A DNA stretch of 64,000 bases, taken from an uncultured Thermoleophilia bacterium (GTDB lineage Bacteria > Actinomycetota > Thermoleophilia > UBA2241). Position numbers and translations under genes: made by a program. Below, piece after piece: positions 8,518-42,595 of the stretch (within the stretch, counting starts at the first letter, position 1; each line of letters starts with the position of its first letter). The DNA is taken from contig CAWFDC010000019.1 of assembly GCA_963814545.1 (NCBI GenBank), positions 229,872 to 293,871 of the forward strand, given 5' to 3'. The notes under the pieces are model-generated. The model was not told where the DNA came from, searched no databases, and worked only from the letters and a program-made list of their open reading frames with translations.

Positions 8518-9112
8518 TGAGCGAGGCGCGTGAGAGGAGGGCGGGAAAGCGGTGAGGCTGGTTCATGAGGTTGAGGACTGGATTGGGTCTGAGGCGCCCC
8601 TCGCTAGGGTTACTTCTCGTTTGAACTTTGTGGTCAATGAGTCAAGTTCTTGCGCCGCGCAGCGGCGCCACTTATACACGGCGTCAGAAGTCGCGCCGCG
8701 TGAGGGCGCGCGGCCTACAGGTTTGTAGGCCGGGTCCCCTGACCCGGCGCTGGATCATTTATGTCGCTCTGTATAGCGAGGCGTCGACTGCCGGTGATCG
8801 TGGTGGACACCCAGCGGCCACGAGTCGTTCGAACGCTTCGCCGGTCTGACGCGGACCCTCACCAAACCCGCAGAGCCAAAGCGCCAGAGGACTGGCGCAG
8901 TCTCCCGCAGCCGCGGGACTGGCGCCTTTTCGGAGGTCTCCGGACCGCGCGGAGCGTTTTGGAGTGCGGCAGTCTTCTGCCGCTCTGGGACACTCGCGAA
9001 CGATCTGGCAACACGCCTCGCCGGTCTGAGGCGAAGCCTCGCTAACCCGGAAATCTCACCAGTGGGGCGATCGCGGCGTTCCGGACGGTCCGCGGGTGAG
9101 ATTTCCGGGTCT
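8518..9112. repeat. Mosaic of short dispersed repeats (families H3, H4, H5, H3, partial H3, H2)
   Basis: Diverged H3 at 8518-8606. H4 at 8608-8674. H5 at 8675-8773. H3 at 8774-8865. Right half of H3 at ~9018-9045. H2 hairpin at 9046-9110 (CCCGGAAATCTCACC...GGTGAGATTTCCGGG). Each family recurs elsewhere in the window. Confidence 0.85.
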
Positions 9113-9505
9113 GTGAAACCCGCAGCCAGCAGGGTCATCGCCCGGCACCATGACCATCGGAGACCCGAGCTCGCTGGTCCGTCGGAATTCTGTGGTGTTG
9201 TTTTCATGTCAGCTTGAACCGTCATCGGCGCAACCGCGGGTTTCATCGTGCAGTGATCTCATTAGCCGGAATGATCGAGACACGGCCTGGCTCGGCTCGA
9301 TCCGCGTTCGGGCATCGCGAAAGACTACCGCGCTGTGGAAGGAGCAGGCAAGCCGGGAGCGCAGCGCGGCAGCAGTTCTCGTTCTGGCCAAGAGCCGCCT
9401 CAAGGCGGGACACCGAACACCGTTCCGAGCCCCCCGGCGCGGTTTGGTGTCCCGGCTTCAGCCGGTTTCCGCGCCGGGCGCTCCTCAAAGTTGGCTGGCT
9501 GGCTG

Positions 9506-14182: not shown

Positions 14183-14598
14183 TGTGGCTTCTGAGTCGCA
14201 TCTCTGTGCCGCGCAGCGGCGCCCCTTAGCCCGCATTTCTCAGCAACTTTTGATGTCCTCTGACCGGTCACCGTCGCATTGCACCTGAAATGCGGGCTCT
14301 CAGAAACCCGCGCCCCAAGCAGATGGACCCAATCTCGACCACACTGTGTCCGCGTGCCCGGGTCGCCCACGCGGCAGGGGCGCGTCCCGGCTCTGATGAA
14401 CCGATGAGCCAATTCCCTTTGCTGGGCGCGGGTTTCATAGACCCGGAAATCTCACCCGCGGACCGTCAGGAATGCAACGACCGCCCCAATGGTGAGATTT
14501 CCGGGTTAGCGAGGCGTCGAACTCCAACGGCAATGGTCCAAGTCCAGCGTGCGAAAGTTGTCAACCAGCCTTGTCGGTCTGAGGCGGAGCCTCGCTAA
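14183..14598. repeat. Repeat mosaic H4 - H1 - spacer - H2 - H3
   Basis: H4-like at 14183-14227. H1 hairpin at 14228-14298 (AGCCCGCATTTC...GAAATGCGGGCT). Conserved spacer. H2 hairpin at 14442-14505. H3 at 14506-14598 (TIR TTAGCGAGGC/GCCTCGCTAA). The hslR stop codon lies in the H3 right arm. Confidence 0.88.
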
Positions 14599-15067: not shown

Positions 15068-15840
15068 TAACGCAGCCGCAGTCTGCATATTTCGCAGCGC
15101 GGCAGAGCCGCAACCAAAGCGACGGGAGACTCGTGCGTCTCTGGTGCCGACGAATGCGCAGGTCGCCGCGCTGCGCCGGCGATGCTCCGCAGCGCTCAGG
15201 GGATCCGAGGAGAGGAACCACCAAGGCGCGTGCAAGCGAGCCACAGGTGTTCAACAGGTGAACGCGTTGGTCGAATGACAATCCTCTCCAAACTGCACGA
15301 AGTGGACACATGGTAACACTTAACTCCCCATGAACCGGGTGTACCGCCGACGTCCACGTCGGCCCGGTGGAATCTCAGGTGACTGCCCCCGAGCCGGCTG
15401 GAAAGCCGGCGGTACAGGTTCATGTGCGCGGAGGTCGGAATCGGAATCGGAATCGGCGTCGCAGGTCGCCTGCTGTCGATTCCGATACCGATGGCGATCG
15501 CGACCTCGACCGGAGTTCGCTGGCGGTTCATCGCCACTGGGCAGTTCAAAAAGGAACAGGTGGCTCTCCAGGAACCGGGAGGCAACTGACCACATGAGCG
15601 TCCGCGGGACGAGTAAGCATATAACCTCGGGGGCGGATGGACCCCGGGGCCCATCCGCCTCGGCCCACTCTCGTTTCCTGGCGAGGCGCGCCTGTGACGA
15701 ATCCCACTCCTCAGACTCATGCCCAATTGCAGTGTCTTCCCGGCTCTCGCCTCCGGCGCCTCGCTCGGAGAGTCCTTGAGCTAATCCCAGAGCCGACTGA
15801 CACTCGACTCGTTCACCACAGATTTCCCAGTTCAAGGATT

Positions 15841-18330
15841 CTATGGCGTTTTTTCCGCAACGCGGAAGAACTCGACATTCTGCGTCGGTTGAACCGTCCA
15901 GGTGGCGGTGCTTCCCGTTGCCGTGGCCTCGGCGCCTGCCGTCCACTGGGTCAGGTTCGTCGAGGTCCAGAGTTGATACACCTTTCCAGCCGCCAGACCC
16001 GCCGCGGTGATTGCGATGGTGTTGCCGTCCCGACCAACGGAAAGCACCGGCGGCTCTGAGGGCTGAATGCTGATTCGCAGGTCGTCCAGCGAAAAAACAC
16101 CGTAGATCGGCTCCGATTCCGGCATCCCCAGGCGGGCCTGCACGAGCAGACGCCACTGAACCAGGTTGCCAACGTCCACCGCCGACGTGTCCCAAAAATC
16201 CGCCAGACGCGCTTCGAGTGTGGTCCACTCGCCGGAGATCACCGGCGCGCTGTCGGTGACGAAACTCATCGCCTGGCCCGCTTGATCGTAGAAAGTCAGC
16301 CAGAACCCAGTCGCACCATCAGCGACAGCAGCCAGCGCCGGGTCGCCCTTGAACCGCAGCGAAACCACCCCGTCGGCAGGGAACGAGAATGGCTCGACGA
16401 TGGCTGAGAGGACGCTGCCCCACGGGTACTGGCCCGCGGCGAAGTAGATGCCCAGTTCGAGCCCTTTGTTTCCCTGCGGAGCCGGCGTCAGGATCGACGC
16501 CGCCGTCGCCGTCAACTCGGCTGGACTGTTGACATAGGAGTAGAAGGCCTCGAGCGCGGCGGTGTCCGCGTACCCCTCGAAATCGTCCAAGAGCGGACGG
16601 AAAGGCGCCGGGGCGGGAAACAACGGGGTGTCGCGGACCATCAGGTCGTCCACCAGAATCGTCGCCGTGTACGGATCGATCGCCGCCTGGCTGCCGTACT
16701 GGAAGAGCGACATCCGCACAATCCGGCCCAGATCGGGCAAACCGGGCGAATCCCACGGCTGCGCGATACTGCCAGCCAGGAAGTTGACGATCTGCCAGTC
16801 GTCCGTCGTGGGCGCCGGCGCACCCCATCGACCGAAGTTGCCGCTCGCGTCGAAGGCATAGACGAAGAAGCTTTGAAAATCGGTCGTGGCAAAGGCCGGA
16901 TCGCCTTTGATGCGCAGCGTGACGTACTGCTTGGGCCCGATCACAATCGGTTCCGCGAACAAAGCACCCCGGATGTTCTCAGTGGCCCAGGCACCCGACG
17001 GAAAATTGAAGGTTGCGCTCATGCTCTTCTGGCCCGGGGACTCCGTCGAGACCGTGTCGGAGGTGGCCAAAACGGTGTTCGCCGACCCGGTCCAAGCCGC
17101 CAGGAGGTCCTCCTCCGTCTCGTACTCGAAATCGTCAATCACGTATTCCTTCGTTTCGACTTCGATGAGCGGCGTGTGCCGGACCATGATGTCATCGACT
17201 TCGATGGTCGCCGTGTACTCTGGAATCGCCGCCTGGCTGCCGTACTGGAAGATCGCGAACCGAACGATGTTGCCGAGGTCGGGCAAGGCGGGTGAATCCC
17301 ACGGTTTCTCGATGCTGCTTGCGCTGAAATTCACCACCTGCCAATCAGCGGTCGTGGGCGCCGGCATGCCCCAACGCCCGAAGTTGCCGCTCCCGTCGTA
17401 GGCATACAGATAGAAATCGCTGAAATCCGCCGCTGCAAACGCCGGATCGCCCTTGATCCGCAGCGTGACGTACTGGGTCGATGCGATCGAAACGGGCGCT
17501 GGCAGTGCGGGACCCTGGATTGTGTCAGTCGCCCATTCGCCGGTGGGGAACGTCAACTGAGCGCGCAGCGCTTTCTGGCCCGGCGAAAGCTGGGCCACCG
17601 CAGTCGACAAACTGACCAGCGTGTTCGGGCTTGGCACCCAGGCCGCCGCCAACGCCGCATCGTCCGCGTACTCGAAGGCCTCGATCACAAACTCCTTCGG
17701 CACGACCGAATCGATCAACGGTTCGTCGCGGATCGCCAGTTCATCCAGTTCGATGGCCGCCGTGTAAGGGGCAATCGCCGCCTCGCTTCCATATTGATAG
17801 AAGGCAAACCGGGTGATCTGGTTCAGATCGGGCAGGCCGGGCGAATCCCAAGGTGCCGCGATGCCCCCGGCGCTGAAGTTAAACACGCCCCATTCGGACG
17901 TCGTCGGAATCGGCGCGCCCCATCGCCCGAAGTTCCCGTTCCAGTCATAGGCGTATACGTAGAAGTACCGGAAATCGGCCGACGCAAACACCGGGTCGCC
18001 TTTGACCCGCACGGTGACGTATTGTGCGGGATCGATCACAATAGGTTCGCTCAACTCCTGCCCCTTGATCGTCTCCGTCGCCCACGCCGTGGACGGGAAG
18101 TTGAACTGCACACGCATCGCCTTCAGACCGGTCGAGTGCGAAGAGACCTCCTCCGAGAGCGAGAGCAAAGCGTTCGGGCTCGGCGTCCAAGCCGCCAACA
18201 GGTCGTCTTCGCTCGAGTACTCGAAATCGTCGACCACGGTCTGCGCGTAGACCGCACCGCACATCAGGCCGCCGCAAAGGGCGGCGCACAGGGAGAACCA
18301 GGGTTTGTTTCGCATCATTCGTTTCCTCAT
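15841..18330 (-). CDS. Secreted protein with four tandem CBM-like modules and a C-terminal beta module
   Basis: Track ORF 15841..18447. Start ATG 18330 or 18318 (MRKRMMRNKPWFSLCAALCGGLMCGAVYA signal). Three ~184-aa repeats (DDFEY...AAW...GDP.FA..DF..F.VYA.D..GNFGRWG.P.PTT..W...NF...I..PWDSP.LPDL) plus a divergent fourth. The tail ends ...VEFFRVAEKTP. Confidence 0.85.
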   Translation of the reverse strand: MRKRMMRNKPWFSLCAALCGGLMCGAVYAQTVVDDFEYSSEDDLLAAWTPSPNALLSLSEEVSSHSTGLKAMRVQFNFPSTAWATETIKGQELSEPIVIDPAQYVTVRVKGDPVFASADFRYFYVYAYDWNGNFGRWGAPIPTTSEWGVFNFSAGGIAAPWDSPGLPDLNQITRFAFYQYGSEAAIAPYTAAIELDELAIRDEPLIDSVVPKEFVIEAFEYADDAALAAAWVPSPNTLVSLSTAVAQLSPGQKALRAQLTFPTGEWATDTIQGPALPAPVSIASTQYVTLRIKGDPAFAAADFSDFYLYAYDGSGNFGRWGMPAPTTADWQVVNFSASSIEKPWDSPALPDLGNIVRFAIFQYGSQAAIPEYTATIEVDDIMVRHTPLIEVETKEYVIDDFEYETEEDLLAAWTGSANTVLATSDTVSTESPGQKSMSATFNFPSGAWATENIRGALFAEPIVIGPKQYVTLRIKGDPAFATTDFQSFFVYAFDASGNFGRWGAPAPTTDDWQIVNFLAGSIAQPWDSPGLPDLGRIVRMSLFQYGSQAAIDPYTATILVDDLMVRDTPLFPAPAPFRPLLDDFEGYADTAALEAFYSYVNSPAELTATAASILTPAPQGNKGLELGIYFAAGQYPWGSVLSAIVEPFSFPADGVVSLRFKGDPALAAVADGATGFWLTFYDQAGQAMSFVTDSAPVISGEWTTLEARLADFWDTSAVDVGNLVQWRLLVQARLGMPESEPIYGVFSLDDLRISIQPSEPPVLSVGRDGNTIAITAAGLAAGKVYQLWTSTNLTQWTAGAEATATGSTATWTVQPTQNVEFFRVAEKTP
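16591..18240 (-). repeat. Intragenic tandem repeat, three units of ~552 nt
   Basis: Protein units of 184, 182 and 184 aa align residue for residue. A fourth, diverged unit continues to ~16080. Confidence 0.85.
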
Positions 18331-18716
18331 TCTGAGCGGCGCTTTACCGCCGTCTATGTCGGATTGACTATGCCTGAAATGATCCACGCGTTCAATGCCA
18401 ATCGTCAGGGCGTGCCAAGGAGGATGAGGGTTGGATCTCGAGTTCAACGGAGCCGCAAAGCAACGAATAGCGCGTTCACGGCGGCGGCTCGATGACTGTC
18501 ATTTGTGTCCTGGTGACCGAGCGTCGAAATCGTCGAAATTGTTTGCCGCGGTGCTCGACGATCGCATAATGGACCCCGTCCGACCGCCATCGCGATAGAG
18601 GCAATCGCCCGCTTTGACAAAGCGGCTGAAGGGCATCCGGGGCAGGCTGGTGCCGTCTGGCGGTTTTGGACCGGGTGAGAGGAAGTGCAGTTTCGGCTGA
18701 AGGATTTGTCACCCTG

Positions 18717-18877
18717 CTAGAGTGACTCCTCGTTTGAAATCTGTAGTGAATGAGTCAAGTTGTTGCGCCGCGCAGCGGCGCCACTTAGCGAGGCGTCGGA
18801 CGCCGGTGATGGTGGTGGCCGCCCAGCGCAGACGAGTTGTTCACGCCCCGCCTCGGTCTGAGGCGAAGCCTCGCTAA
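18717..18877. repeat. H4 + H3 repeats, contiguous (uninterrupted junction)
   Basis: H4 at 18717-18787 (…GAGTCAAGTTGTTGCGCCGCGCAGCGGCGCCACTTA) runs directly into H3 at 18785-18877 (TTAGCGAGGCGTCG…GGTCTGAGGCGAAGCCTCGCTAA). Confidence 0.88.
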
Positions 18878-18908
18878 GTTTACAAGCTATTGTAAACAAA
18901 GCGTTTAA

Positions 18909-18983
18909 GCCAGTTTAGCTCAGTGGTAGAGCAACGGTTTTGTAAACCGTCGGTCGTCGGTTCAAATCCGACAACTGGCTCCA
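18909..18983 (+). tRNA. tRNA-Thr (anticodon TGT), CCA encoded
   Basis: Acceptor GCCAGTT/AACTGGC. D-arm AGCTCAGTGGTAGAGC. Anticodon stem-loop ACGGT-TTTGTAA-ACCGT. T-arm GGTTCAAATCC. Discriminator T plus CCA. Confidence 0.93.
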
Positions 18984-19199
18984 TTCCCACGACTCACGTT
19001 GGGTGCCGACCTTTCACGATCTCTACGGTGGATGCTGATCTTGCATGATCACTTCCTGGTTCGAGTCTTCACATTTCGTTCCTGTCATTCACATGCGACG
19101 GATAGCAGACGCCTCCGTTCATCAAGCGTATCCGCTCCAAGGGTGCGATTGGTTGCAGGGAGTTTGGCAGCCGCAGAGTCTGGGTAGCCAGGCCCCGCC

Positions 19200-19460
19200 A
19201 ATGTTCAGTGGCCCCGAAATCGCGCATCGAGATCTTGCCACCGGGCAGGTCCCCGCCACAGGAAACGACCTCGAGCCACACGGAGGGTTCAGTTACACGT
19301 GCTGCAGGACTTGCCAGGGATCGGCCCCGCGTGCGCTACCGGACTATTGGAGCGGTTTGAGCGTGTGGAAGCTGTGATGACCGCCAGCGCCAAGCCGCTG
19401 CGAACCGTGGACGGGATCGGACCGAAGCCTGTAGCGTTCATCCGCTGGGCGCTGGAATGA
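19200..19460 (+). pseudogene. Remnant of an ERCC4/HhH nuclease gene (paralog of 22952..23695)
   Basis: Reads RHRKRPRATRRVQLHVLQDLPGIGPACATGLLERFERVEAVMTASAKPLRTVDGIGPKPVAFIRWALE*. The intact gene reads PRHGKRPKTRRRVQLRLLQGLPGIGPSRATALLERFERVEAVMTASAESLQAVDGIGSKTAASIRWALE*. An in-frame TAG lies upstream and no nuclease domain is recognisable. Confidence 0.8.
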
Positions 19461-19748
19461 GGCGCCTTCTTGCTGCGGCAGCCTCGCGGCCAGCAGCGAG
19501 CCGCACAAGGTGGAAGAGCGCGTTGGTAAAAGGCGATTCCGCCCGACTGCCGCTTGAAACCAAAAGCCCGCTGGAGCAGCCTTCAGCCAGCGCGACATAC
19601 GTGCTGATGAGTGGCGCTGCCCCAAAGCCGCGGGCGGCCGGGCCTTTCCCGCGAGAAAGGACGGCCAGACTTCGGCTCTCGAACGGTAGTACCGCCTCGT
19701 GTCGCGACAGATCGCGGGCAACCGAGCGTAAGAAGCAGCATTGTGGCG

Positions 19749-20733
19749 ATGAACGACGACAGACTGGAGCACGGCGACCTGATCGATTTCCTGGCGGAAG
19801 ACCCGATGGGGGAGCGCCGATATTGGGCCGTGATGCTGGTCGTGCGGATGCTGGAGACGAAGCTTGGCTGCCGCTATCGGGGAGACAACCGACTCAGCGG
19901 CGCAGCGAACGCCGAAGCGGCCATCGGGTCGTTGCGGGCAGCGATGGCGCCGCTCTCCCAGGCCGAACAGGGGTTGATGTTGCGGACGATCTTCCTGATG
20001 TCGTGGGAACAGGTGCGTCGCCGCACTGGCCTCAGCCTCCGGTTGCCCGAGGTCCTTGACGCACTGGGCAAGGATCTCGGCACGTTCGCCTGTCTCGCTG
20101 CCGCGCACTCCGTGATCGAGCAAGGAGATGACGCGGTACGACGGTACCCGCTCGATGGGCTTCTGCCGGAAGTACGGCAGCCAGGGCAGGGCTTGATCGT
20201 GACCCTCGACGCCGAGGATTGCCGTCTGCCTCGAGGTCGCCGAGACACAAATCGAAATCGATCGGCTGACCATCGCCGTCCGAAGCTTTCGTGGTTTGAA
20301 CTCGGAAGCGAACCTCCGTCCCCTCGTCGCTTGGTATCTCTCGACACTGCCGGGCGGGGAAACCGATCGGGCGGTGGCGACGCTGCTCTCGGACCTTCCG
20401 GTCGCGTCCAAAGACGAGCAGGTGTGCTGGCGATCACTCGGCCTGCTCGATTGGATGGCCGCGCACCCGGATCATCCCAAGGCCGCCGAGGCCATGGCGG
20501 CGGGCAGACAAGTCGCCCGGGCCGACGTGCGCAAGGCTGCGGCCCAAACGGCCGCAGCGCTCGGACGCTGGGAGGTGCTTGTCGCACTCGGTCGGGATGA
20601 CCCGGACCGGGGGGTGAGGCAGCGGGCTGAGAAGCTGCTGGCCAACAGGAGCGGTACAGGAGGCCTTGGCGGCCAAGGTGACCTCTTCGAGCGGTCCGAT
20701 GCATCGCGGCCGCCAAGTGCCCCGGACCGGTAA
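19749..20733 (+). pseudogene. Hypothetical protein with a HEAT-like C-terminus, apparently frame-broken near 20200
   Basis: MNDDRLEHGDLIDFL... reads sensibly to ~20200. Sensible sequence then continues in another frame (…IAVCLEVAETQIEIDRLTIAVRSFRG-LNSEANLRPLVAWYLSTLPGG…RQRAEKLL…) up to the stop at 20733. Could instead be two genes, the second starting at TTG 20296. Confidence 0.35.
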
Positions 20734-20757
20734 CTCGGCAAAGGAGCCAGTTAGCCC

Positions 20758-20869
20758 ATGAGCAAGAAGAAAGGCCATCGCAAGTCACTGCCGACGAGTT
20801 GAGATTGAAGCCCAGCCGCACGGCTTACATGTCCTGGGGCAAGGGCCGCCGGCAGCCGCTGCGTTTCAG
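20758..20869 (+). pseudogene. Deletion remnant joining the start of a 24033-type gene to the middle of a 24490-type gene
   Basis: CCAGTTAG..ATGAGCAAGAAGAA matches 24019-24046. 20801-20869 (…KPSRTAYMSWGKGRRQPLRF) matches 24715-24788. About 690 bp present in copy 2 is missing here. Confidence 0.75.
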
Positions 20870-21787
20870 TCAGTCGCCAAACCGAGCATGCAGTTCTTCA
20901 GCCTGCTGGGCGAATTTGCGGGGGTTGTTTTTCTTGAGCCTCAGCAGATTCTGCAGCTTCCAGCGCACGGCGGGCAGTTCCGCGAGGTGCGCGCATCTCA
21001 TCAGACGCCAGTCCGGCGCTCCAGCCACCAGGTCCAGGAGAAACCGGCGGTGGTTATCGGTCAGCGCGGAAGGCAATTGGGACCTTAACTCGCTGCGGAC
21101 CGCAACCAGTTGATCGACCGCGATCGGCTGCCGCGTCAGGCCGATGAACTCCCGCTCGAAGGCGGCGGAGAGGTCGTGATCCCGAGAGAACAGCACTTCA
21201 TGCACCGGGCGGTTGTGTCCGGCCAGATAGCAGACGAAGCATTCCACCACGTCTTGGCTCAGCCTGCCTTTCTCGAACAGTCCAAGCAGGTCAAAGAGGT
21301 CGCGGGGATGCTGGCGATCCAAGGCGGCGACCAGCTTGCTCCCATACAACTCCGGAGTCGCCAACACAGGGGCAGTCCATTCCGTCGTGAACAGCCGGCG
21401 CGCTTCGGCACGAAGACTCCGTCGCTCGATGGGCAGAACCGCGCCGCGGAATACCTGGTTCACTTCCATTTTCACCTGATTGCGGCCGCGCCGGACAAAC
21501 AGTTTGATCTCCTGGCCTTCGCTCGTGGACGAGACTTCGGACTCGATTCCCATCTCGGCCAGGCGTGTTCGGGCCGTTCTCAGCGCCCTGGAGATAGACG
21601 CCAAAGCACCCGCGCGGGGCGCCTTGTAGTCAGTGTAGACCACGTCAACGTCCACGGACAGGCGCGGCATGTCCTTAACGAACAGGTTGATGGCCGTGCC
21701 TCCCTTCATCGCGAAAGTGGGCGTTTCAAGAACAACCGGGGCGGCTTCCAGAAGCAACCGAACAGTCTCGACGTAGGCTTTGTCCAT
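20870..21787 (-). CDS. AbiEii/AbiGii-family nucleotidyltransferase toxin (type IV TA)
   Basis: Start ATG 21787 (MDKAYVETVRLLLEAAPVVLETPTFAMKGGTAINLFVKDMPRLSVDVDVVYTDY…) is a typical AbiEii N-terminus. The start overlaps the AbiEi stop (TAATG). Confidence 0.85.
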   Translation of the reverse strand: MDKAYVETVRLLLEAAPVVLETPTFAMKGGTAINLFVKDMPRLSVDVDVVYTDYKAPRAGALASISRALRTARTRLAEMGIESEVSSTSEGQEIKLFVRRGRNQVKMEVNQVFRGAVLPIERRSLRAEARRLFTTEWTAPVLATPELYGSKLVAALDRQHPRDLFDLLGLFEKGRLSQDVVECFVCYLAGHNRPVHEVLFSRDHDLSAAFEREFIGLTRQPIAVDQLVAVRSELRSQLPSALTDNHRRFLLDLVAGAPDWRLMRCAHLAELPAVRWKLQNLLRLKKNNPRKFAQQAEELHARFGD

Positions 21788-22530
21788 TATGGCTTCAGAA
21801 CGAGCGTGGTCCCGTCTTTGAACCGGGCGGTCCAACGGCCGCGTCCCGGTCTTCCTCCTGCCGCCCTCCGGGCGGCGGCGGCCCACGGCAGATTGAGTTC
21901 CTGCGCCCAGAGCACGCAAAGCCGCCTCACCTTAACACGCTGGCAGTGTCTGAGTAGCACGGCCAGGATTTCAGGGCGCAATGAACGGACCCCTTCGAGA
22001 ATGTGGCGGGCTTCCTCGAGTCCCTGGTGGATACCCACTTCACTCAGCAGTTCGAGCACCGCCATTTCCGGCACGGAAACCAGAACTCCCTTGGGAGTCT
22101 CCGGCAGCGGCTGCAGTCCAAAGTCCCTGGCAAGGGAGCCCGCGAAGGGGCTGCGCGTCGTGTAGCGCGCGCGAAATCGTTCCACGAACCACTCCGGCAG
22201 CCGGGCCTTTTGCTCGCCCCACAGGCAAAGCGATTCTTGCGCCGGGACGTTGTGCCGCACGCCCCGCCACCCCAAAGCGGTCTTGCCACCGACATGGAAG
22301 CCGGGCAGGCGCCGAGCCAGGAACTCCAGGCAATCTGCCTCGCGGAGCGTGTCGTTGGGAAACATGAATACGCCGCGTCCCAGGCGCGCCAGCCAACCGG
22401 ACTTCGAGTAATGATGCGCGAGCGCCGACGACACGCCGATTCTGGCCAGATCGCGCTGGTCCAATGGCGCTCCGCGTGGGAACGTCCTTTGCAGCCGTTT
22501 GATTAGGCTGGAGCGCTTCGTTAAAACCAT
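21787..22530 (-). CDS. AbiEi-family antitoxin/transcriptional regulator
   Basis: MVLTKRSSLIKRLQRTFPRGAPLDQRDLARIGVSSALAHHYSKSGWLARLGRGVFMFP… is a winged-helix AbiEi-type N-terminus. Translationally coupled to the toxin gene. Confidence 0.8.
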   Translation of the reverse strand: MVLTKRSSLIKRLQRTFPRGAPLDQRDLARIGVSSALAHHYSKSGWLARLGRGVFMFPNDTLREADCLEFLARRLPGFHVGGKTALGWRGVRHNVPAQESLCLWGEQKARLPEWFVERFRARYTTRSPFAGSLARDFGLQPLPETPKGVLVSVPEMAVLELLSEVGIHQGLEEARHILEGVRSLRPEILAVLLRHCQRVKVRRLCVLWAQELNLPWAAAARRAAGGRPGRGRWTARFKDGTTLVLKP

Positions 22531-22646
22531 GCTTGAATTGTAGCGTCAGAATCAAGCAGATGGCAAGCGGTCAAACGACCTTGAGGATCGGGGTAGGCAG
22601 GACAGAATCGGTTCTTTCATGACAATACATGACACTTTACGGGGGA

Positions 22647-22746
22647 AACGTGCGTTAACGTGCGTGATGACCGTTCTGGATCATAATGCACGAAAGCTCC
22701 CTGTTGACGAAGGGATGACGCACGTTCACGCAGAAAAGACGCACGC
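22647..22746. promoter_or_regulatory. Direct/inverted 9-mer repeats upstream of abiEi (candidate operator or att-arm sites)
   Basis: AACGTGCGT at 22647-22655 and 22657-22665. Inverted ACGCACGTT at 22718-22726 and ACGCACGC at 22739-22746. TTGACG at 22704. Lies between the abiEi start (22530) and the tRNA fragment (22755). Confidence 0.4.
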
Positions 22747-22754
22747 CTGGGTTT

Positions 22755-22802
22755 GGTTTTGTAAACCGTCGGTCGTCGGTTCGAATCCGACAACTGGCTC
22801 CA
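22755..22802 (+). repeat. Duplicate of the 3' 48 nt of tRNA-Thr (att-like direct repeat)
   Basis: GGTTTTGTAAACCGTCGGTCGTCGGTTCGAATCCGACAACTGGCTCCA matches 18936-18983 at 47 of 48 positions (A/G in the T-loop). No 5' half of the tRNA is present. Confidence 0.92.
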
Positions 22803-22951
22803 AATCGTTTCGCTCCTGCGTCGCGAAACGATCCGGCCCGCTGCGCCGGGCCGGCACAGCCTGTTCCCCTTCATGCTCTTCCTGCTCTTCGTGGTGAGCC
22901 CAGACGAGGATTTGGATCGAGACTGGGACCGTTGACGTCCAGCCAGACTCG

Positions 22952-23695
22952 ATGGACATTGGCCGCGTCTGGAAAGGAGGATGCATGAATGAAGCAAGAG
23001 GAGTTGCGGACGAGAGCGGAGCGGCCAAAGAGGGCGATGGTATCGAGAGCACCCCCAGGACCTCGGCGAACGTTGTCCTTGTGGACCATCGAGAGACACG
23101 CAGCGGTGTTCTGACAGCGTTGGAACAAATCCCGGGCATTGCGGTCCGGGTCGAGCGACTCAAGTTGGGGGATTATCTGGTCAACAACTCCTGTGTGTTC
23201 GAGCGGAAAACTCTGTTGGACTTCGCCGAGTCCATCAAAGACGGACGCTTGTTCACGCAGGCCCGCCGGCTCGCTTCCTGGCCTGACCGGGCGGCCTTCA
23301 TCATCGAGGGAACAGCCCAGGACTTGAGTGGCAGTTCGATGCGGCGGGAAGCCTTGCAGGGGGCCGTCATCACACTCACGTTGATCTACGAACTTCCGGT
23401 CCTGCGATCGCATGACCCCGCGGAGACAGCGCGGTTGCTCGTCTATGCGGGCGACCAATTGCGCCGGCATGCGGACGGCGCCCTACCCCGGCACGGAAAG
23501 AGACCCAAAACGAGACGACGAGTCCAGTTGCGGCTGCTACAGGGCCTGCCCGGGATCGGGCCATCGCGCGCAACAGCCTTGCTCGAGCGGTTCGAGCGGG
23601 TCGAGGCCGTAATGACCGCCAGCGCCGAGTCCCTCCAAGCGGTGGACGGGATCGGCTCCAAGACCGCGGCGTCGATCCGGTGGGCGCTGGAATAG
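22952..23695 (+). CDS. ERCC4 (XPF/Mus81-type) nuclease with a C-terminal helix-hairpin-helix pair
   Basis: VLVDHRE…LGDYLV…FERKTLLDF (GDxn-ERKxxxD signature). FIIEG. C-terminal LLQGLPGIGPSRATALLERF…VDGIGSKTAASI. Alternative start ATG 22985 after GGAAAGGAGG. Confidence 0.82.
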   Translation: MDIGRVWKGGCMNEARGVADESGAAKEGDGIESTPRTSANVVLVDHRETRSGVLTALEQIPGIAVRVERLKLGDYLVNNSCVFERKTLLDFAESIKDGRLFTQARRLASWPDRAAFIIEGTAQDLSGSSMRREALQGAVITLTLIYELPVLRSHDPAETARLLVYAGDQLRRHADGALPRHGKRPKTRRRVQLRLLQGLPGIGPSRATALLERFERVEAVMTASAESLQAVDGIGSKTAASIRWALE

Positions 23696-24032
23696 AGCGT
23701 GGTTGTGCCCGCGCTGGTCCTGTCGAAGATCGCCAGCGTCTCTGTGGACTTCCCGGACGCGGCGGCGGCCATCCAGGTCTCGGGCACGTCCGGCCCCCGC
23801 CAGGAAGAGGCACAGCGCTTGGGACGCATCTTGTGGCCCAAGCCGGGCGAGAATCAGGCCCACTTCCACACGGTTGTTTCCCGCGACACCGTGGAACGAT
23901 AATTCGGCTTGAAATAGCAACCGTTTCTGTGCGAGCAAGGTTACGAATGCCGCGTCGGGACCCTGGACCGGCCGGATGAATCGCTGCCGGCAACTGCGCC
24001 GGGCGGGTGAATCAACAACACACCAGTTAGGG

Positions 24033-24482
24033 ATGAGCAAGAAGAAGCGAGTGCCCACGTTCGCCCGAGCGAAGCCGGTCGATCAGCCGCCGGTGTCGCC
24101 GATGAGGGAGAGCGTGCTCTCTGCAGCCCAGACCAACGCAGGCGCAGAGGTGGATCACATTTGCGGGCTTGCCTCCAGGGGGGAGTCCCGCGTCATCGGC
24201 TTCAGCAAGTTGGTGTTGTTTTCCACGGCGACGCGCGATGCCTGGTTGCTCGACTGGGAAGATGAACTGGCGATCTGCCTGATGAAGGATGGAATGCCCC
24301 GACCGTACGAGCTTGGCGAGACCGATCGCGCCTTCGCCATCCAATGGCGAGGTCGCTACCACATCGAGGGAGGACTGTTTGCGTACATCGACAACGCCAC
24401 GCCAACGCACGCGCGAGTGATTCAGGGCTATCCAACCGAGGCCATACTCGCCACAATCGAACGAATGAAACGCGGGATTTGA
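24033..24482 (+). CDS. Hypothetical protein (cassette gene 2)
   Basis: MSKKKRVPTFARAKP…WLLDWEDELAICLMKDG…IQWRGRYHIEGGLFAYIDN… No family recognised. Its start is duplicated at 20758. Confidence 0.6.
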   Translation: MSKKKRVPTFARAKPVDQPPVSPMRESVLSAAQTNAGAEVDHICGLASRGESRVIGFSKLVLFSTATRDAWLLDWEDELAICLMKDGMPRPYELGETDRAFAIQWRGRYHIEGGLFAYIDNATPTHARVIQGYPTEAILATIERMKRGI

Positions 24483-24489
24483 CGGCCCT

Positions 24490-24951
24490 GTGAACCGACA
24501 GCGACTCAAAGCCAAGACGATTGTCATTGCGAAGCAGCTTCTCGAAGCCAAGGGCTATGTCAGTGCCGTTGAGGTGCTGCTGGCCATGGGCCGGTTGTCC
24601 AAAGAGGACTATGAGCGATGGCGCTTCCGCCAAGTGCCGCATCTCGAAAAGGTTCTGCCCGGCAGCCTGAACGAGCACGCGTTCTTCTGTCGCGAATTGC
24701 GCGTCCACGCCCGCGAATTGAAGCTGAAGCCGAGCCGCACGGCTTACATGTCCTGGGGTAAGGGCCGCCGCCAACCGCTGCGTTTCACGAAGTACGGCGA
24801 TCCGCACGTCGAGGCCCTTTTCTCGACCCATTACGTCAGCACCGCAATCACTGATTCGCAAAGGGCCCGGCGCGCATGGATTCCGGCACCCCATTCCGCC
24901 ATGCCGTCTGGCGCTCAGTCCCCGTCCTTAGCCGATACGGACCAAGTCTAG
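24490..24951 (+). CDS. Hypothetical protein (cassette gene 3)
   Basis: MNRQRLKAKTIVIAKQLLEAKGYVSAVEVLLAMGRLSKEDYERWRF…KPSRTAYMSWGKGRRQPLRF… Begins 8 nt after gene 2. Its stop codon TAG overlaps the first bases of an H1 repeat. Confidence 0.6.
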   Translation: MNRQRLKAKTIVIAKQLLEAKGYVSAVEVLLAMGRLSKEDYERWRFRQVPHLEKVLPGSLNEHAFFCRELRVHARELKLKPSRTAYMSWGKGRRQPLRFTKYGDPHVEALFSTHYVSTAITDSQRARRAWIPAPHSAMPSGAQSPSLADTDQV

Positions 24952-25020
24952 CCCGCATTTCTCGCCAACTGTTGATGTCATCTGACCGGTCACCGTCCCA
25001 TTTCACCTGAAATGCGGGCT
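24950..25020. repeat. H1 hairpin repeat (solo copy)
   Basis: AGCCCGCATTTC…TGACCGGTCA…GAAATGCGGGCT. 12-bp perfect terminal stem plus a central 10-bp palindrome. Same orientation as the copies at 14228 and 42320. Confidence 0.9.
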
Positions 25021-25572
25021 CTCCCCGTTCACCGGATTGGTGAAGCGATCCACCGCACCGCTGCCGATGAAAGGACCGGCAAGGTTTGTCCACAGCATGC
25101 CCGGTGCGAGCGCGGGCGCGCTCTGCACCCAGTAGAAGGCGCCGGCCACTGAGGGCCAGGCGATTTCCACGCCGTTGGCCGCGAGTTGAATCGCCAGTGG
25201 CGGACCGGGCGGCGTGACGAAATCCAGGGCGTAGATCAGGTTCCCGCCCAATTCACTCGGAGTGTGCGTGGTGCCAACCAGCGTGGCCGCACCGGTCGTT
25301 GGCGACACGCGGTACAGCTTCCGTGTCGAAGCCGCCGCACTGCTCCAGTCGTGCGGCACGTCCACGACGCGCCAGTTCGAATCGTCGAAGCTGGCCTGCA
25401 TGGCCACCGGCTCATCGCCGCGATGGAAGCGACGCTCTGCGGCGAGGCGTGGCGTCGCGCCACGGGCGAGCAGGCCAACGCAAAAAGGGACCTTCTGAAC
25501 GCAAAATGGCAGTACTTCTTCGACGGCAATGCGGTAGAGTACGCGCGAGTGAAGCGCGCTCTTCGCTGTGCT
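25003..25572 (-). pseudogene. Chimeric gene remnant: GH2-like N-terminus, a short unrelated segment and a truncated C-terminal beta module
   Basis: The frame is open from 25572. …RRFHRGDEPVAMQASFDDSNWRVVDVPHDWS is the GH2 N-terminal signature. It is followed directly by KLYRVSPTTGAATLVGT…LIYALDF and PPLAIQLAANGVEIAW…FTNPVNGESPHFR*. The last four codons and the stop lie inside H1. Confidence 0.6.
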
Positions 25573-25785
25573 TCAGCAGTTGTCGCGGAAAGCACACAGG
25601 CTGGCATAGCATCAACAAGATTGAAACATTGAACGCGAGTTTGAATCGGTTCGCGAAACTGAATGGACCACAGACAGAAGCCATCGGGCTGAACACGACG
25701 CTCGCCTTCGACACACGCGAAGAGCACCGGGCGGAATTTGTCCTCATGCCAAACCAGCCGTGAAACCACTCAAAGAGACCAACCG

Positions 25786-28203
25786 ATGAAGACACTGATG
25801 AAAACCTCGTTCCTCCCTCTCGCCCTCGTAGCCCTCTTCGCCGCGCCGCTTCCGGCATTGGCCGCCGGCAAGGGCCAGCCGATGACGATCCCCGACTTCA
25901 CCAAAGGCGGCACCATTCCCGCAGGCGCAAAGCACGACTGGAATCTCGGCCCCACGGGGCTGCGCGGGTGGATGTTTTGCGACAAGATGGTGACCACCGA
26001 TGCGCGGCAGATTTCCATCACCAAAGTGGAGAAGGGTTCTCCCGCCGATGGCATCCTCGCGGTCGGGGACGTCATCCTTGGTGTCGGCGGCAAGCCGTTT
26101 TCCTACGACCCGCGCACCGAGTTCGGCAAGGCACTCACCACCGCCGAATCGGAAGCGGGCGGAGGAAAACTGACCGTGACCCGCTGGCGGGCTGGCAAAT
26201 CGGAGGAGGTCGTCGTCAAACTCCCGGTTCTCGGCACCTACAGCGCCACCGCACCCTACGACTGCCCGAAATCGAAGCGCATTCTCGAGCAAGGGTGCAA
26301 GGCGCTTGCCGCAAGAGTGGCGAAATCCTCGCATGAAGAGGATCCCATCGTGCGTTCCCTCAATGCGCTCGCCTTGTTAGCCAGCGGCGATCCCGCCTAC
26401 CTCCCGCTGGTCAAGAAGGAAGCCCAGTGGGCGGCGGGCTACTCGTCCGACTCGATGCAGACCTGGCACTACGGCTACGTCATGCATGCTGCTCTCCGAG
26501 TATGTGATGGCGACCGGCGACGAATCGGTCATGCCGGGCCTGCGGCGACTCGCGCTGGAAGCCGCCAAGGGTCAGAGCGCGGTCGGCTCGTGGGGCCACG
26601 GGTTCGCGAGACCCGACGGCCGCCTCGGCGGCTACGGGATGATGAACTCTCCGGGAGTGCCGCTGACCATTTCGCTGGTGATGGCCCGCGCGGCGGGCGT
26701 GAAAGACCCGGCGTTGGACCGCGCCATCGAACTCAGTGCCCGCTTGTTGCGATTCTACATCGGCAAAGGGGCGATCCCCTATGGCGATCATCATCCGTGG
26801 ATTGAGAACCACGACGACAACGGCAAGTGCGGAATGGCCGCCGTCCTGTTCAACCTGCTCGGCGAGGCGAAAGGCGCGGAGTTCTTCTCACGCATGAGCA
26901 TCGCCTCCCACGGACCGGAGCGCGACACCGGACACACCGGCAATTTCTTCAACATCCTGTGGTCGATGCCGGGCGTCGCCCAGTCCGGCCCCCATGCCAC
27001 GGGAGCCTGGATGCAGGAGTTCGGTGCCTGGTATTTCGACCTCGCACGGCGCTGGGACGGCACTTTCCTCCACCAAGGCCCGCCGGAGCTGGACGATGAC
27101 AGCTACGCGGGCTGGGACTGCACCGGCGGCTACCTGCTGGCCTACGCGATGCCGCTGAAGAAGATCTATCTGACCGGGAAACGCCCGGGCGTCGCCCCGC
27201 AGCTCGATGCCGCCGCGGCGCAAGCACTCATCCTCGATGGCCGCGGCTGGAGCAACAAGGACCGCAACAGCGCCTACGACAAGCTCAGCGAAGACCAACT
27301 CTTGGAACGCCTCGGCAGTTGGTCGCCAGTGGTCCGCGAGCGGGCCGCGATGGCGCTGGGCCGCCGCAAGGAGGTCCCCATTCCACCCCTGCTGAAAATG
27401 CTGGAGTCCCCCGCACTGGATTCCCGCTACGGCGCCTGCCAGGCCCTGATCGCCCTTCGCGGGCGTGGAGCGCCGGCCATTGAAGCACTGCGGAAATCAT
27501 TGGCGGAAAAAGACCTCTGGCTGCGCATCAAGGCGGCCGAGGCCCTGGCAAGCATCGGCGCCCCCGCCATGCAAGACGGTGCCGCAACTCCTTGAACTGC
27601 TGGCTCAGGTGGACAAGGAGAACGATCCGCGCGGCATGCAGCAGCGGTATCTTTCCTTCGCCCTTTTCGATGACGGCGGGATGCTGAGCCGGTCGCTTGA
27701 TGGAGTGGATCGCGAGGCGCTCTACAAGGCCGTGAGGGCCGGGCTCAGGAACCAGGACGGTCGCGCCGCGGGGCAGCATCGGATCGGTCTATCGCAATCT
27801 CTCCGCCGAAGACATCAAACCCTTGTTGCCCGCCATCTATCAGGCGATCATCGAACCCGCTCCGAGCGGAGAGATGTTCGCCGACTCGATTCGCGTGGAG
27901 GGGCTCCGCCTCTTGGCCAAACATCGGATCGAGGAAGGAATCAGCGCCTGCGTGAACTACACCCGCGATCAGAATCCATGGGCCAGCGAGCATCGGACAC
28001 CTGAATTGATGAAAGTCCTGCTCAGCTACGGGGCCCACGCGAAGTCGGTCATTCCGGAACTGACAAAGATCGCCGACTACTTCGAAAAGGACGAAAAGGA
28101 CTTTCCCAAGGAGCTGATGCTCATGAAGGCCAAGTGCGTCCGCGAAACGATCCGTGCGATTGAAGCCTCGACGGACTCCCCGGAACTCATCCGCCTCAAG
28201 TAG
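25786..28203 (+). pseudogene. Secreted PDZ - alpha/alpha-toroid-like - HEAT-repeat protein, three frame breaks
   Basis: Signal peptide MKTLMKTSFLPLALVALFAAPLPALAA. PDZ segment (ISITKVEKGSPADGILAVGDVILGVGGKPF). Protein continuity runs across track ORFs 25738, 26486, 27465 and 27823. Breaks at 26482-26489, ~27572 and ~27768. Confidence 0.75.
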
Positions 28204-42291: not shown

Positions 42292-42319
42292 CCCGCTCAG
42301 CGACGCCGACTCCTCCCTT

Positions 42320-42595
42320 AGCCCGCATTTCTCACCAACTGTTGATGTCATCTGACCGGTCACCGTCCCATTGCACCTGAAATGCGGGCTCTCAGAAACC
42401 GCGCCCCAAACAGATGGACCCAACTCGATCCCACTGTGTCGGCGTGCCCGGGTCGCCCAAGCGGCTGGGGCGTATCCCGGCTTTGATGAACCGATGAGCC
42501 GATTCTCCTGGGCGCGGGTTTCGAGGAAATCTCACCCGCGGACTGTCAGGTATGCCGCGATCGCCCCACTGGTGAGATTTCCGGGCTAGCGACCC
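42320..42595. repeat. Composite repeat H1 - spacer - H2 (paralog of 14228-14513)
   Basis: H1 at 42320-42390. A conserved ~130-nt spacer (CTCAGAAACCGCGCCCCAAACAGATGGACCC…GATGAACCGATGAGCC). H2 hairpin ending GGTGAGATTTCCGGGCTAGCGA. Collinear with the 14-kb copy apart from scattered substitutions and small indels. Confidence 0.9.

Follow-up and report, generated by a model that had tools for sequence, protein, structure and literature searches.

The question raised by this locus is whether a displaced piece of a tRNA-Thr gene, followed like the gene itself by ERCC4-HhH2 nuclease sequence, marks the far end of an integrated element, and, if so, what kind of element this could be when no recombinase accompanies it. 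The locus lies in a stretch of 64,000 nucleotides (the window; contig CAWFDC010000019.1 of assembly GCA_963814545.1) recorded as DNA of an uncultured Thermoleophilia bacterium (Actinomycetota); the host label used below, Verrucomicrobiota, is that of our own analysis. An earlier note, made from the sequence, had treated positions 18909-25020 as one tRNA-anchored island composed of two tandem, unequally decayed copies of a single cassette. Comparison with related loci shows that the unit which is bounded by repeats and polymorphic among genomes is 18984-22802 only (3.8 kb, including one repeat). This unit is probably a decayed island resembling a cis-mobilizable element (CIME), placed in the 3' part of the tRNA-Thr gene by recombination of the tyrosine-integrase type, beside an older paralogous cassette. 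It is an ordinary decayed genomic island, not a new kind of element. Transfer RNAs were called with ARAGORN and Rfam and genes with Pfam, PADLOC, NCBIfam and PHROGs; the structure of one island gene, gene A, is an AlphaFold2 (AF2) prediction.

The two ends of the unit are as follows.

18909-18983, + strand: intact tRNA-Thr(TGT), whose 3' 48 nucleotides are the left repeat (attL core); ARAGORN, Rfam and repeat search.
22755-22802, + strand: displaced 3' fragment of tRNA-Thr, the right repeat (attR core); repeat search and alignments with relatives.

The tRNA-Thr gene is the sole tRNA of the window (found by ARAGORN; 75.8 bits with Rfam), and an Rfam scan of 18000-25600 returned no other RNA match. 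Its final 48 nucleotides (18936-18983) are repeated at 22755-22802 with a single mismatch, as the earlier note had reported; the mismatch is A versus G in the T-loop. The fragment corresponds to tRNA positions 28-75 and lies on the same strand as the intact gene, so that the block of identity begins at the 5' side of the anticodon stem and extends to the CCA end. A 25-nucleotide sub-pattern of the repeat occurs exactly twice in the window, where shuffled sequences lead one to expect none, and no third tRNA-Thr fragment, degenerate ones included, bounds the right-hand cassette anywhere in the 64 kb. The fragment begins at the identical tRNA nucleotide in the window and in two related loci described below, L094 and L002. 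At the variable T-loop position, the A of the window tRNA is shared with the intact tRNAs of loci L007 and L008, and the G of the displaced fragment with the tRNAs of L001, L003 and L004. An intact tRNA, a displaced 3' fragment and an anticodon-centred attP together form the signature of a tyrosine-integrase island (PMC4383910), and tyrosine integrases are the only ones known to target tRNA genes (PMC4383910). The locus has the intact gene with its cognate 3' end-fragment downstream in the same orientation, as Islander-type searches demand, and it retains both attL and attR, the mark of a CIME: the 48-nucleotide repeats are present and their island-side arms are conserved in L094. Judged from these alignments, the repeat pair is best taken as a genuine attL/attR footprint, as had been proposed.

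An allele that lacks the unit is present in L001, a 9.6-kb Joint Genome Institute metagenome contig found through the closest homologue of the intact right-hand nuclease (98% amino acid identity, with synonymous divergence, dS, of about 0.10). Positions 1695-5049 of this contig match window 15628-18983 (96%) and positions 5002-7269 match window 22755-25023 (98%). The 48 nucleotides are exactly the stretch that the two alignments have in common, and a single tRNA-Thr is therefore joined directly to 'spacer-1' and the nuclease, B and C genes that follow the displaced fragment in the window; the 3.8 kb are absent, and window position 18983 is in effect joined to 22803. The same adjacency of tRNA, spacer-1 and nuclease is seen in L007 (with L012, contig 217 of GCA_964413865.1) and in L008 (with L013, from GCA_040766265.1), which is 84-86% identical to the window and has a homologous 824-amino-acid gene upstream of tRNA-Thr, as in the window lineage. 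The earlier note had proposed to look for empty sites in which tRNA-Thr is followed at once by the flank at 25 kb; the empty allele exists, with the nuclease cassette next to the tRNA in all three relatives in place of that flank. Given that L001, L007 and L008 are all empty, insertion in the window lineage is the parsimonious direction. In the empty-site form the right-hand set behaves as resident flank, and it may be an older island layer.

The direction could also be reversed, with the double arrangement ancestral and the 3.8 kb lost from L001 and the other 'empty' relatives by excision or deletion between the repeats. Deletion between 48-bp direct repeats is easy, and its product is indistinguishable from a site that was never occupied. 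Three separate relatives are empty, however, including L008, an outgroup in which upstream synteny is kept, so repeated precise losses would be required. We consider this history distinctly unlikely, and it would alter the direction of the event, not the nature of the element.

Between the two ends, the unit contains the following features.

18984-19156, + strand: left arm, 'spacer-2'; 82% identical to L094 and 89% to L003 and L004, directly after tRNA-Thr (blastn).
19245-19460, + strand: ERCC4-HhH2 nuclease remnant (Pfam HHH_5, 1.9e-8; translation).
19749-20727, + strand: gene A', a nearly full-length HEAT/ARM-like solenoid of 327 codons (tblastn, translation, AF2).
20758-20869, + strand: B'/C' fusion remnant (blastn, tblastn, translation).
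20870-21787, - strand: AbiEii nucleotidyltransferase toxin, 305 amino acids, intact (Pfam, 3e-34; PADLOC, 2.3e-106).
21787-22530, - strand: AbiEi antitoxin and transcriptional autorepressor, 247 amino acids, intact (Pfam AbiEi_3 and AbiEi_3_N; PADLOC, 6.7e-58).
22531-22754, no strand assigned: right arm, 224 bp (alignment with L094; k-mer repeats; inverted repeat I12).

A second occupied site shows that these features belong together. L094, a locus on a 50-kb contig of GCA_964578605.1, was found through the nearest non-identical AbiEii (92% amino acid identity). It begins with tRNA-Thr and spacer-2 (a match at 82% that spans window 18903-19156), followed by an intact gene A (327 amino acids, 77% nucleotide identity), the tail of B and an intact C. 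Next come PRiA4_ORF3, DUF6398 and SEC-C genes that are absent from the window, then AbiEii and AbiEi with the 224-bp right arm, and the 48-nucleotide tRNA fragment closes the island. The host flanks differ from those of the window, with an SBBP protein upstream of the tRNA and a cellulase beyond the fragment. This layout identifies the left-hand set and AbiE as one element of about 6.0 kb. AbiE thus does not fill a gap between two copies, as had been suggested; it is cargo at the right end of the very element to which the left-hand set belongs. Aligned in this way, the window copy is a deletion derivative of a ~6.0-kb island of the L094 type; relative to the fuller form it has lost the ERCC4 domain of the nuclease gene, most of B, the end of C and three genes. 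The L094 island has itself lost the whole nuclease gene, and B is deleted in both island copies.

Two further loci, L003 and L004, carry tRNA, spacer-2, AAA_14 and DUF559 genes and an intact nuclease, and look like this island type with its left part undeleted. In L002 (with L006, contig 79 of GCA_964413865.1), a tRNA fragment with the same boundary has an unrelated island-side arm and is followed by spacer-1 and a cassette of nuclease, ParE toxin-antitoxin, A, B and C genes. That the same boundary is joined to an unrelated arm indicates that independent elements use the same crossover site.

The left-hand genes have decayed to different degrees. Only the HhH2 part of the nuclease is left (about residues 165-236), with an in-frame stop upstream, in agreement with the earlier note. 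This remnant is 79% identical in nucleotides to the L003 nuclease and 75% to the resident, right-hand nuclease (about 70-73% in amino acids), from which it differs by a dS of about 1.6. Gene A', which the note had overlooked, is interrupted near 20229 by one +1 frameshift that could alternatively be an assembly error: tblastn with the L094 gene A aligns residues 1-160 at 19749-20228 and residues 161-326 at 20230-20727, at 70% amino acid identity. Between the two loci gene A has a dS of 0.63 and a ratio of nonsynonymous to synonymous divergence (dN/dS) of 0.30, and it has no counterpart in the right-hand set. The fusion remnant at 20758-20869 consists of the first ~5 codons of B' (MSKKK) followed by C' residues 68-101. 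The deletion that joins them is real, at about 650 bp and not the ~690 given before, and is equivalent to right-hand positions 24047-24695. C' is truncated at the AbiE junction, where L094 retains the remainder of C and three more genes.

When the left and right regions (18.9-20.9 and 22.7-25.0 kb) are aligned, they do share segments beyond the tRNA piece, as the note had expected, in the form of three short diverged blocks only. The first is the nuclease C-terminus (19230-19461 versus 23465-23697; 75% of nucleotides, 70% of amino acids), the second pairs 20689-20771 with 23966-24046 (75%), and the third pairs 20777-20868 with 24696-24787 (83%, with a core of 94%). The same gene order after both copies of the tRNA end might suggest that the tRNA 3' end and the cassette had been duplicated locally in tandem, with one copy decaying and AbiE captured between them. 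The nuclease pieces differ by a dS of about 1.6, yet L001, at a dS of about 0.1, lacks the left unit. The left unit also has its own arm, spacer-2, which is unrelated to spacer-1 and common to L003 and L094, and in L094 it occurs without the right-hand cassette beside it. To judge from these divergence figures and from L094, local duplication has next to no probability left and appears effectively refuted; the alternative raised with it, tandem accretion of related elements at one tRNA, fits much better.

The intact part of the island is its AbiE operon. An AbiEi protein with a winged helix-turn-helix (wHTH) and a C-terminal domain is encoded adjacent to an AbiEii nucleotidyltransferase of the DUF1814 family, the AbiEi stop overlapping the AbiEii start by 1 nucleotide. 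Nucleotidyltransferase motifs I/II, defined as hG[G/S]x15DhD (PMC3985639), are preserved in AbiEii as hGG-x15-DhD (...MKGG-TAINLFVKDMPRLSV-DVD... in the translation). Between the window and L094, AbiEi is 94% identical in amino acids (dS about 0.2, dN/dS 0.13) and AbiEii 92% (dS about 0.2, dN/dS 0.22), values that place the intact operon under purifying selection. AbiE is an autoregulated type IV toxin-antitoxin and abortive-infection module that stabilises mobile elements (PMC3985639). The present system resembles characterised ones (PMC3985639) in its bicistronic operon with stop/start overlap, its AbiEi_3-type wHTH antitoxin, its DUF1814 toxin and its carriage on a mobile element, as is known for stabilising AbiE systems; it differs in that its proteins, known here from sequence, are only distantly related to those of the characterised Streptococcus agalactiae and lactococcal systems. 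A plasmid collection held only distant AbiE genes, and a phage collection gave no match.

The right arm is kept in L094 up to the repeat boundary, within a block (20875-22802) that is 91% identical. It carries repeated AACGTGCG / CGCACGTT motifs. Direct and inverted AACGTGCG(T) copies lie at 22647-22665 and 22717-22745, upstream of abiEi, and motifs related to AACGTGCG occupy the matching places in the right arm of L094. The arm presumably holds the abiE promoter/operator, and the AACGTGCG / CGCACGTT repeats could be AbiEi operators or arm sites of an integrase (recombinase).

The earlier note had seen no tyrosine or serine recombinase in the window, and a Pfam scan of 49 window ORFs (those of the island and 39 further mid-sized ones across the window) returned no integrase, resolvase or transposase family; the tyrosine integrase (PF00589) that Islander looks for within or overlapping an island is thus missing. 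The L094 island and its flanks likewise yielded no recombinase, and the flanks of L002, L005 and L013 yielded none other than insertion sequence (IS) transposases at a good distance from the att sites. Both the window island and its L094 form are without integration genes, and there is no integrase-bearing ancestor among the loci compared. Scans of viral contigs for the left arm and the 48-nucleotide core gave no match, and no circular or attP junction was present in that viral collection.

Could a gene of the island or the cassette have taken the place of the integrase? We considered gene A as a hidden recombinase and rejected it: it has no Pfam or PHROG match, and the AF2 model (pLDDT, the per-residue confidence score, of 86) predicts an all-alpha, HEAT/ARM-like solenoid for which the PDB offers no match below E = 0.02. 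Its homologues number only 35, all verrucomicrobial, and elsewhere the gene is solitary with no tRNA nearby. The ERCC4 nuclease was rejected as an integrase substitute as well, with a tRNA directly upstream of it in 0 of 80 metagenome loci that encode 47-67% identical homologues.

Self-mobilisation through an unconventional function of the nuclease, A, B, C or AbiE, for instance nuclease-triggered homing into tRNA-Thr, has two observations in its favour: the two island copies are positioned exactly in tRNA-Thr of different genomes although neither has a canonical recombinase, and in several relatives the ERCC4 nuclease gene lies beside tRNA-Thr, where an integrase gene is often found. Besides the 80 tRNA-free nuclease loci and the solenoid fold and unrelated contexts of gene A, it has to face the loss of the nuclease catalytic domain in the window island and of the whole gene in L094, and the deletion of B from both copies. 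We regard it as highly improbable. The unconventional mobilising function raised by the earlier note accordingly finds no support, and loss of the integrase or its supply in trans is the ordinary explanation. A broader version, in which a recombinase-less family of tRNA-Thr islands with exact att junctions spreads in Verrucomicrobiota, either as satellites linked to an integrase-bearing helper or by a non-canonical integration function in A or C, is in our view very unlikely.

Any account of the locus has to start from the observed boundaries, the empty site, the second island copy, the intact AbiE operon and the lack of a recombinase among the ORFs scanned. In the reading that we prefer, a decayed CIME-like island, the element would have entered by recombination between the tRNA gene and an element-borne 48-nucleotide copy of the tRNA 3' part. 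Integration would have rebuilt an intact tRNA at the left (attL) and displaced the original 3' fragment to the right (attR); a G in the fragment and an A in the rebuilt tRNA would fit a 3' part donated by the element, which is weak evidence. The junctions would be the work of a tyrosine integrase since lost or acting in trans, and both where the identity block lies and how far it reaches appear to fit the anticodon-loop sublocation of such enzymes. The resident cassette (nuclease, B and C), next to which the island would have landed, is a diverged paralogue of the left-hand module, and this landing accounts for the look of 'two tandem copies'. AbiE would serve in abortive-infection defence against phages and, being a toxin-antitoxin pair, would also penalise loss of the island and maintain it in place. 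To move again, the island would depend on an integrase provided in trans, on homologous recombination between the 48-bp repeats or on co-transfer with a neighbouring element.

Several points weigh against this reading. The integrase is neither encoded nor seen acting, so that the recombinase step comes from the footprint alone, and our search for the gene covers the 64 kb of the window and no more of the genome. Both known copies lack an integrase, a fact that sits a little uneasily with independent decay and suggests that their ancestor was already non-autonomous. The A/G single-nucleotide difference says little, as intact tRNAs of relatives are found with either variant. In principle, the difference between the window and L001 could also stem from loss of the island in L001 instead of gain in the window. 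Finally, no circular or attP junction was found, the viral collection alone having been searched.

The lack of an integrase in the island and among the window ORFs scanned also suits another route, in which a pre-formed array of tRNA, island and fragment was imported by homologous recombination, with no integrase acting in this lineage. Crossovers would have fallen in the tRNA and its upstream flank on the left and in the 48-nucleotide fragment or the nuclease cassette on the right, or a circle would have entered through RecA at the 48-bp identity; the att footprint would have been created earlier and elsewhere. The region is indeed mosaic. The island qualifies because AbiE (dS about 0.2) and gene A (about 0.63) diverge unequally from L094, and the resident cassette because gene C (dS 0.04) and the adjoining nuclease (dS 1.06) diverge so unequally from L002. 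On the right, however, the homology available is only the 48 bp, or sequence of about 75% identity across the nuclease, which is a poor substrate, and the window and L094 hosts share no flanking homology, so at least one of the two insertions needed a site-specific step. Import is possible but unlikely, and it would explain the transfer of the structure, not its origin.

As a decayed CIME-like island, the unit has several known counterparts. CIMEs keep attL and attR after loss of the integration genes, and tandem accretion at att sites is well described (PMC5704250). Like the CIMEs of the ICESt1/CIME arrays of Streptococcus thermophilus and the tandems of a CIME with an integrative and mobilizable element (IME) or an integrative and conjugative element (ICE) (PMC5704250), the window island has attL and attR at its two ends, shares the 3' end of its target gene with related decayed sequence in tandem and derives by deletion from a larger element. 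It differs in its host, which by our label belongs to Verrucomicrobiota, in having no ICE or IME partner visible in the window and in showing no trace of conjugation or mobilisation genes. The intact tRNA with a same-orientation 3' fragment, an identity block from anticodon stem to 3' end and a length above 2 kb are shared with Islander-type islands in tRNA genes, class A with anticodon-centred attP (PMC4383910, citing Williams 2002, NAR 30:866); the window island fails the integrase filter of that search, with no PF00589 domain in it or overlapping it. The tycheposon islands of Prochlorococcus (bioRxiv 10.1101/2020.12.28.424599) likewise form arrays beside tRNAs through successive integrations, newer ones pushing older ones away, leave partial tRNAs and gene fragments in the array and carry defence cargo. 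Tycheposons have their own integrase and replication modules, and the window island has nothing of that kind.

The locus is thus a boundary-exact, defence-carrying island without an integrase, documented with an empty and a second occupied site in a phylum poorly studied for mobile elements. Pipelines that require an integrase, such as the Islander filter, would miss elements of this sort. What looks like a 'duplicated cassette' beside a tRNA need not reflect duplication: it can consist of two layers, diverged from each other, of an integration hotspot. None of this changes the current understanding of how islands move.

The resident cassette, outside the repeat-bounded unit, comprises the following.

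22803-22984, + strand: 'spacer-1', directly after the intact tRNA in L001, L007 and L008 and after the tRNA fragment in L002.
22985-23695, + strand: ERCC4-HhH2 (Hef/XPF-type) nuclease, 236 amino acids, intact (Pfam, NCBIfam, homologues).
23699-23989, + strand: C-terminal remnant of an XPB/ERCC3-type helicase, about residues 475-567 (Pfam ERCC3_RAD25_C on the L001 orthologue; tblastn with the L103 helicase).
24033-24482, + strand: gene B (MSKKK...), 149 amino acids, intact, of no known family.
24490-24951, + strand: gene C (containing KPSRTAYMSWGKGRRQPLRF), 153 amino acids, intact, of a widespread family without a Pfam model.
24949-25023, + strand: 75 bp of a ~290-bp interspersed repeat, abutting the end of gene C, complete in L001.

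The description of this set as intact holds for the nuclease, B and C; it had passed over the helicase remnant and placed the nuclease start elsewhere than at 22985, which is most likely correct to judge from all homologues. The nuclease has an ERCC4 domain (Pfam, 1.1e-24) followed by tandem HhH2 (HHH_5, 2.5e-13), the order expected of XPF/Hef proteins, and has 981 homologues. It matches positions 558-772 of the NCBIfam Hef model at 1.2e-48; for lack of the helicase part, the match stays below the cut-off for the whole protein. The helicase remnant, the last ~90 codons of the gene, stands straight 3' of the nuclease in the window, L001 and L007 (926-1138). An intact 576-amino-acid XPB helicase is encoded in L103 (4415-6145), 3.5 kb downstream of the nuclease, and helicase sequence also occurs at L002 5846-6547. 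A constant pairing of nuclease and XPB helicase was considered and rejected: the helicase is found only in close verrucomicrobial loci, mostly as remnants, and near none of the distant nuclease homologues in the 80 loci.

Neither gene B nor gene C has a match in Pfam, PADLOC, NCBIfam, PHROGs or the PDB sequences. Gene B is 98% identical in amino acids to its L001 homologue and 71% to that of L002; for gene C the values are 95% to L002 and 80% to L094. The gene C family has 927 cluster representatives at E<=1e-3 and a conserved core of ~120 amino acids. Fusions to CxxCxxCC, SIR2_2 or DUF2293 domains occur in a few members and are too weak for assigning a function. The nuclease adjoining gene C is 75% identical to that of L002. 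The end of gene B and the whole of gene C (24188-24949) are 94.5% identical in nucleotides to L002 4058-4822, beside a nuclease at ~78%; this pattern points to recent recombination or gene flow, apparently confined to that segment.

Copies of the ~290-bp repeat lie elsewhere in the window at 14223-14512, 42315-42592 and 9032-9131 (- strand), with 88-92% identity among the window copies, and outside it at L001 7196-7476, L002 6558-6728 and L009 16559-16679. As L001 has the full copy and the window the first 75 bp only, the right edge of the cassette is the site of a second indel polymorphism. The repeat may be an element similar to a miniature inverted-repeat transposable element (MITE). The region 3' of the nuclease is different in every relative examined. 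IS transposase genes stand just downstream of the nuclease cassette in L005 (2811-3242) and L013 (19032-20090); the types seen beside cassettes in relatives are ISL3 N-terminal domains and DDE_Tnp_1, and several contigs stop there.

The metagenome-assembled genome GCA_964413865.1 has two diverged nuclease loci, on contigs 79 and 217. One nuclease follows an intact tRNA-Thr at the start of its contig, and the other follows a bare 48-nucleotide fragment 1.45 kb from the end of its contig. The two contigs could each be one half of a further occupied tRNA-Thr site, or they could stem from two strains placed in one bin.

Upstream of tRNA-Thr, window 15841-18447 (- strand) encodes an 868-amino-acid, secreted-looking protein without a family match, conserved at that place in L001 and L008. 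It is built of internal repeats of ~549 bp (183 amino acids; repeat families D2, D4 and D5). Downstream of the cassette, two overlapping ORFs in different frames (25738-26805 and 26486-27595, + strand) both match DUF6288 (best E 1.4e-95), and probably represent a single gene that a frameshift has divided, as a pseudogene or through an assembly error.

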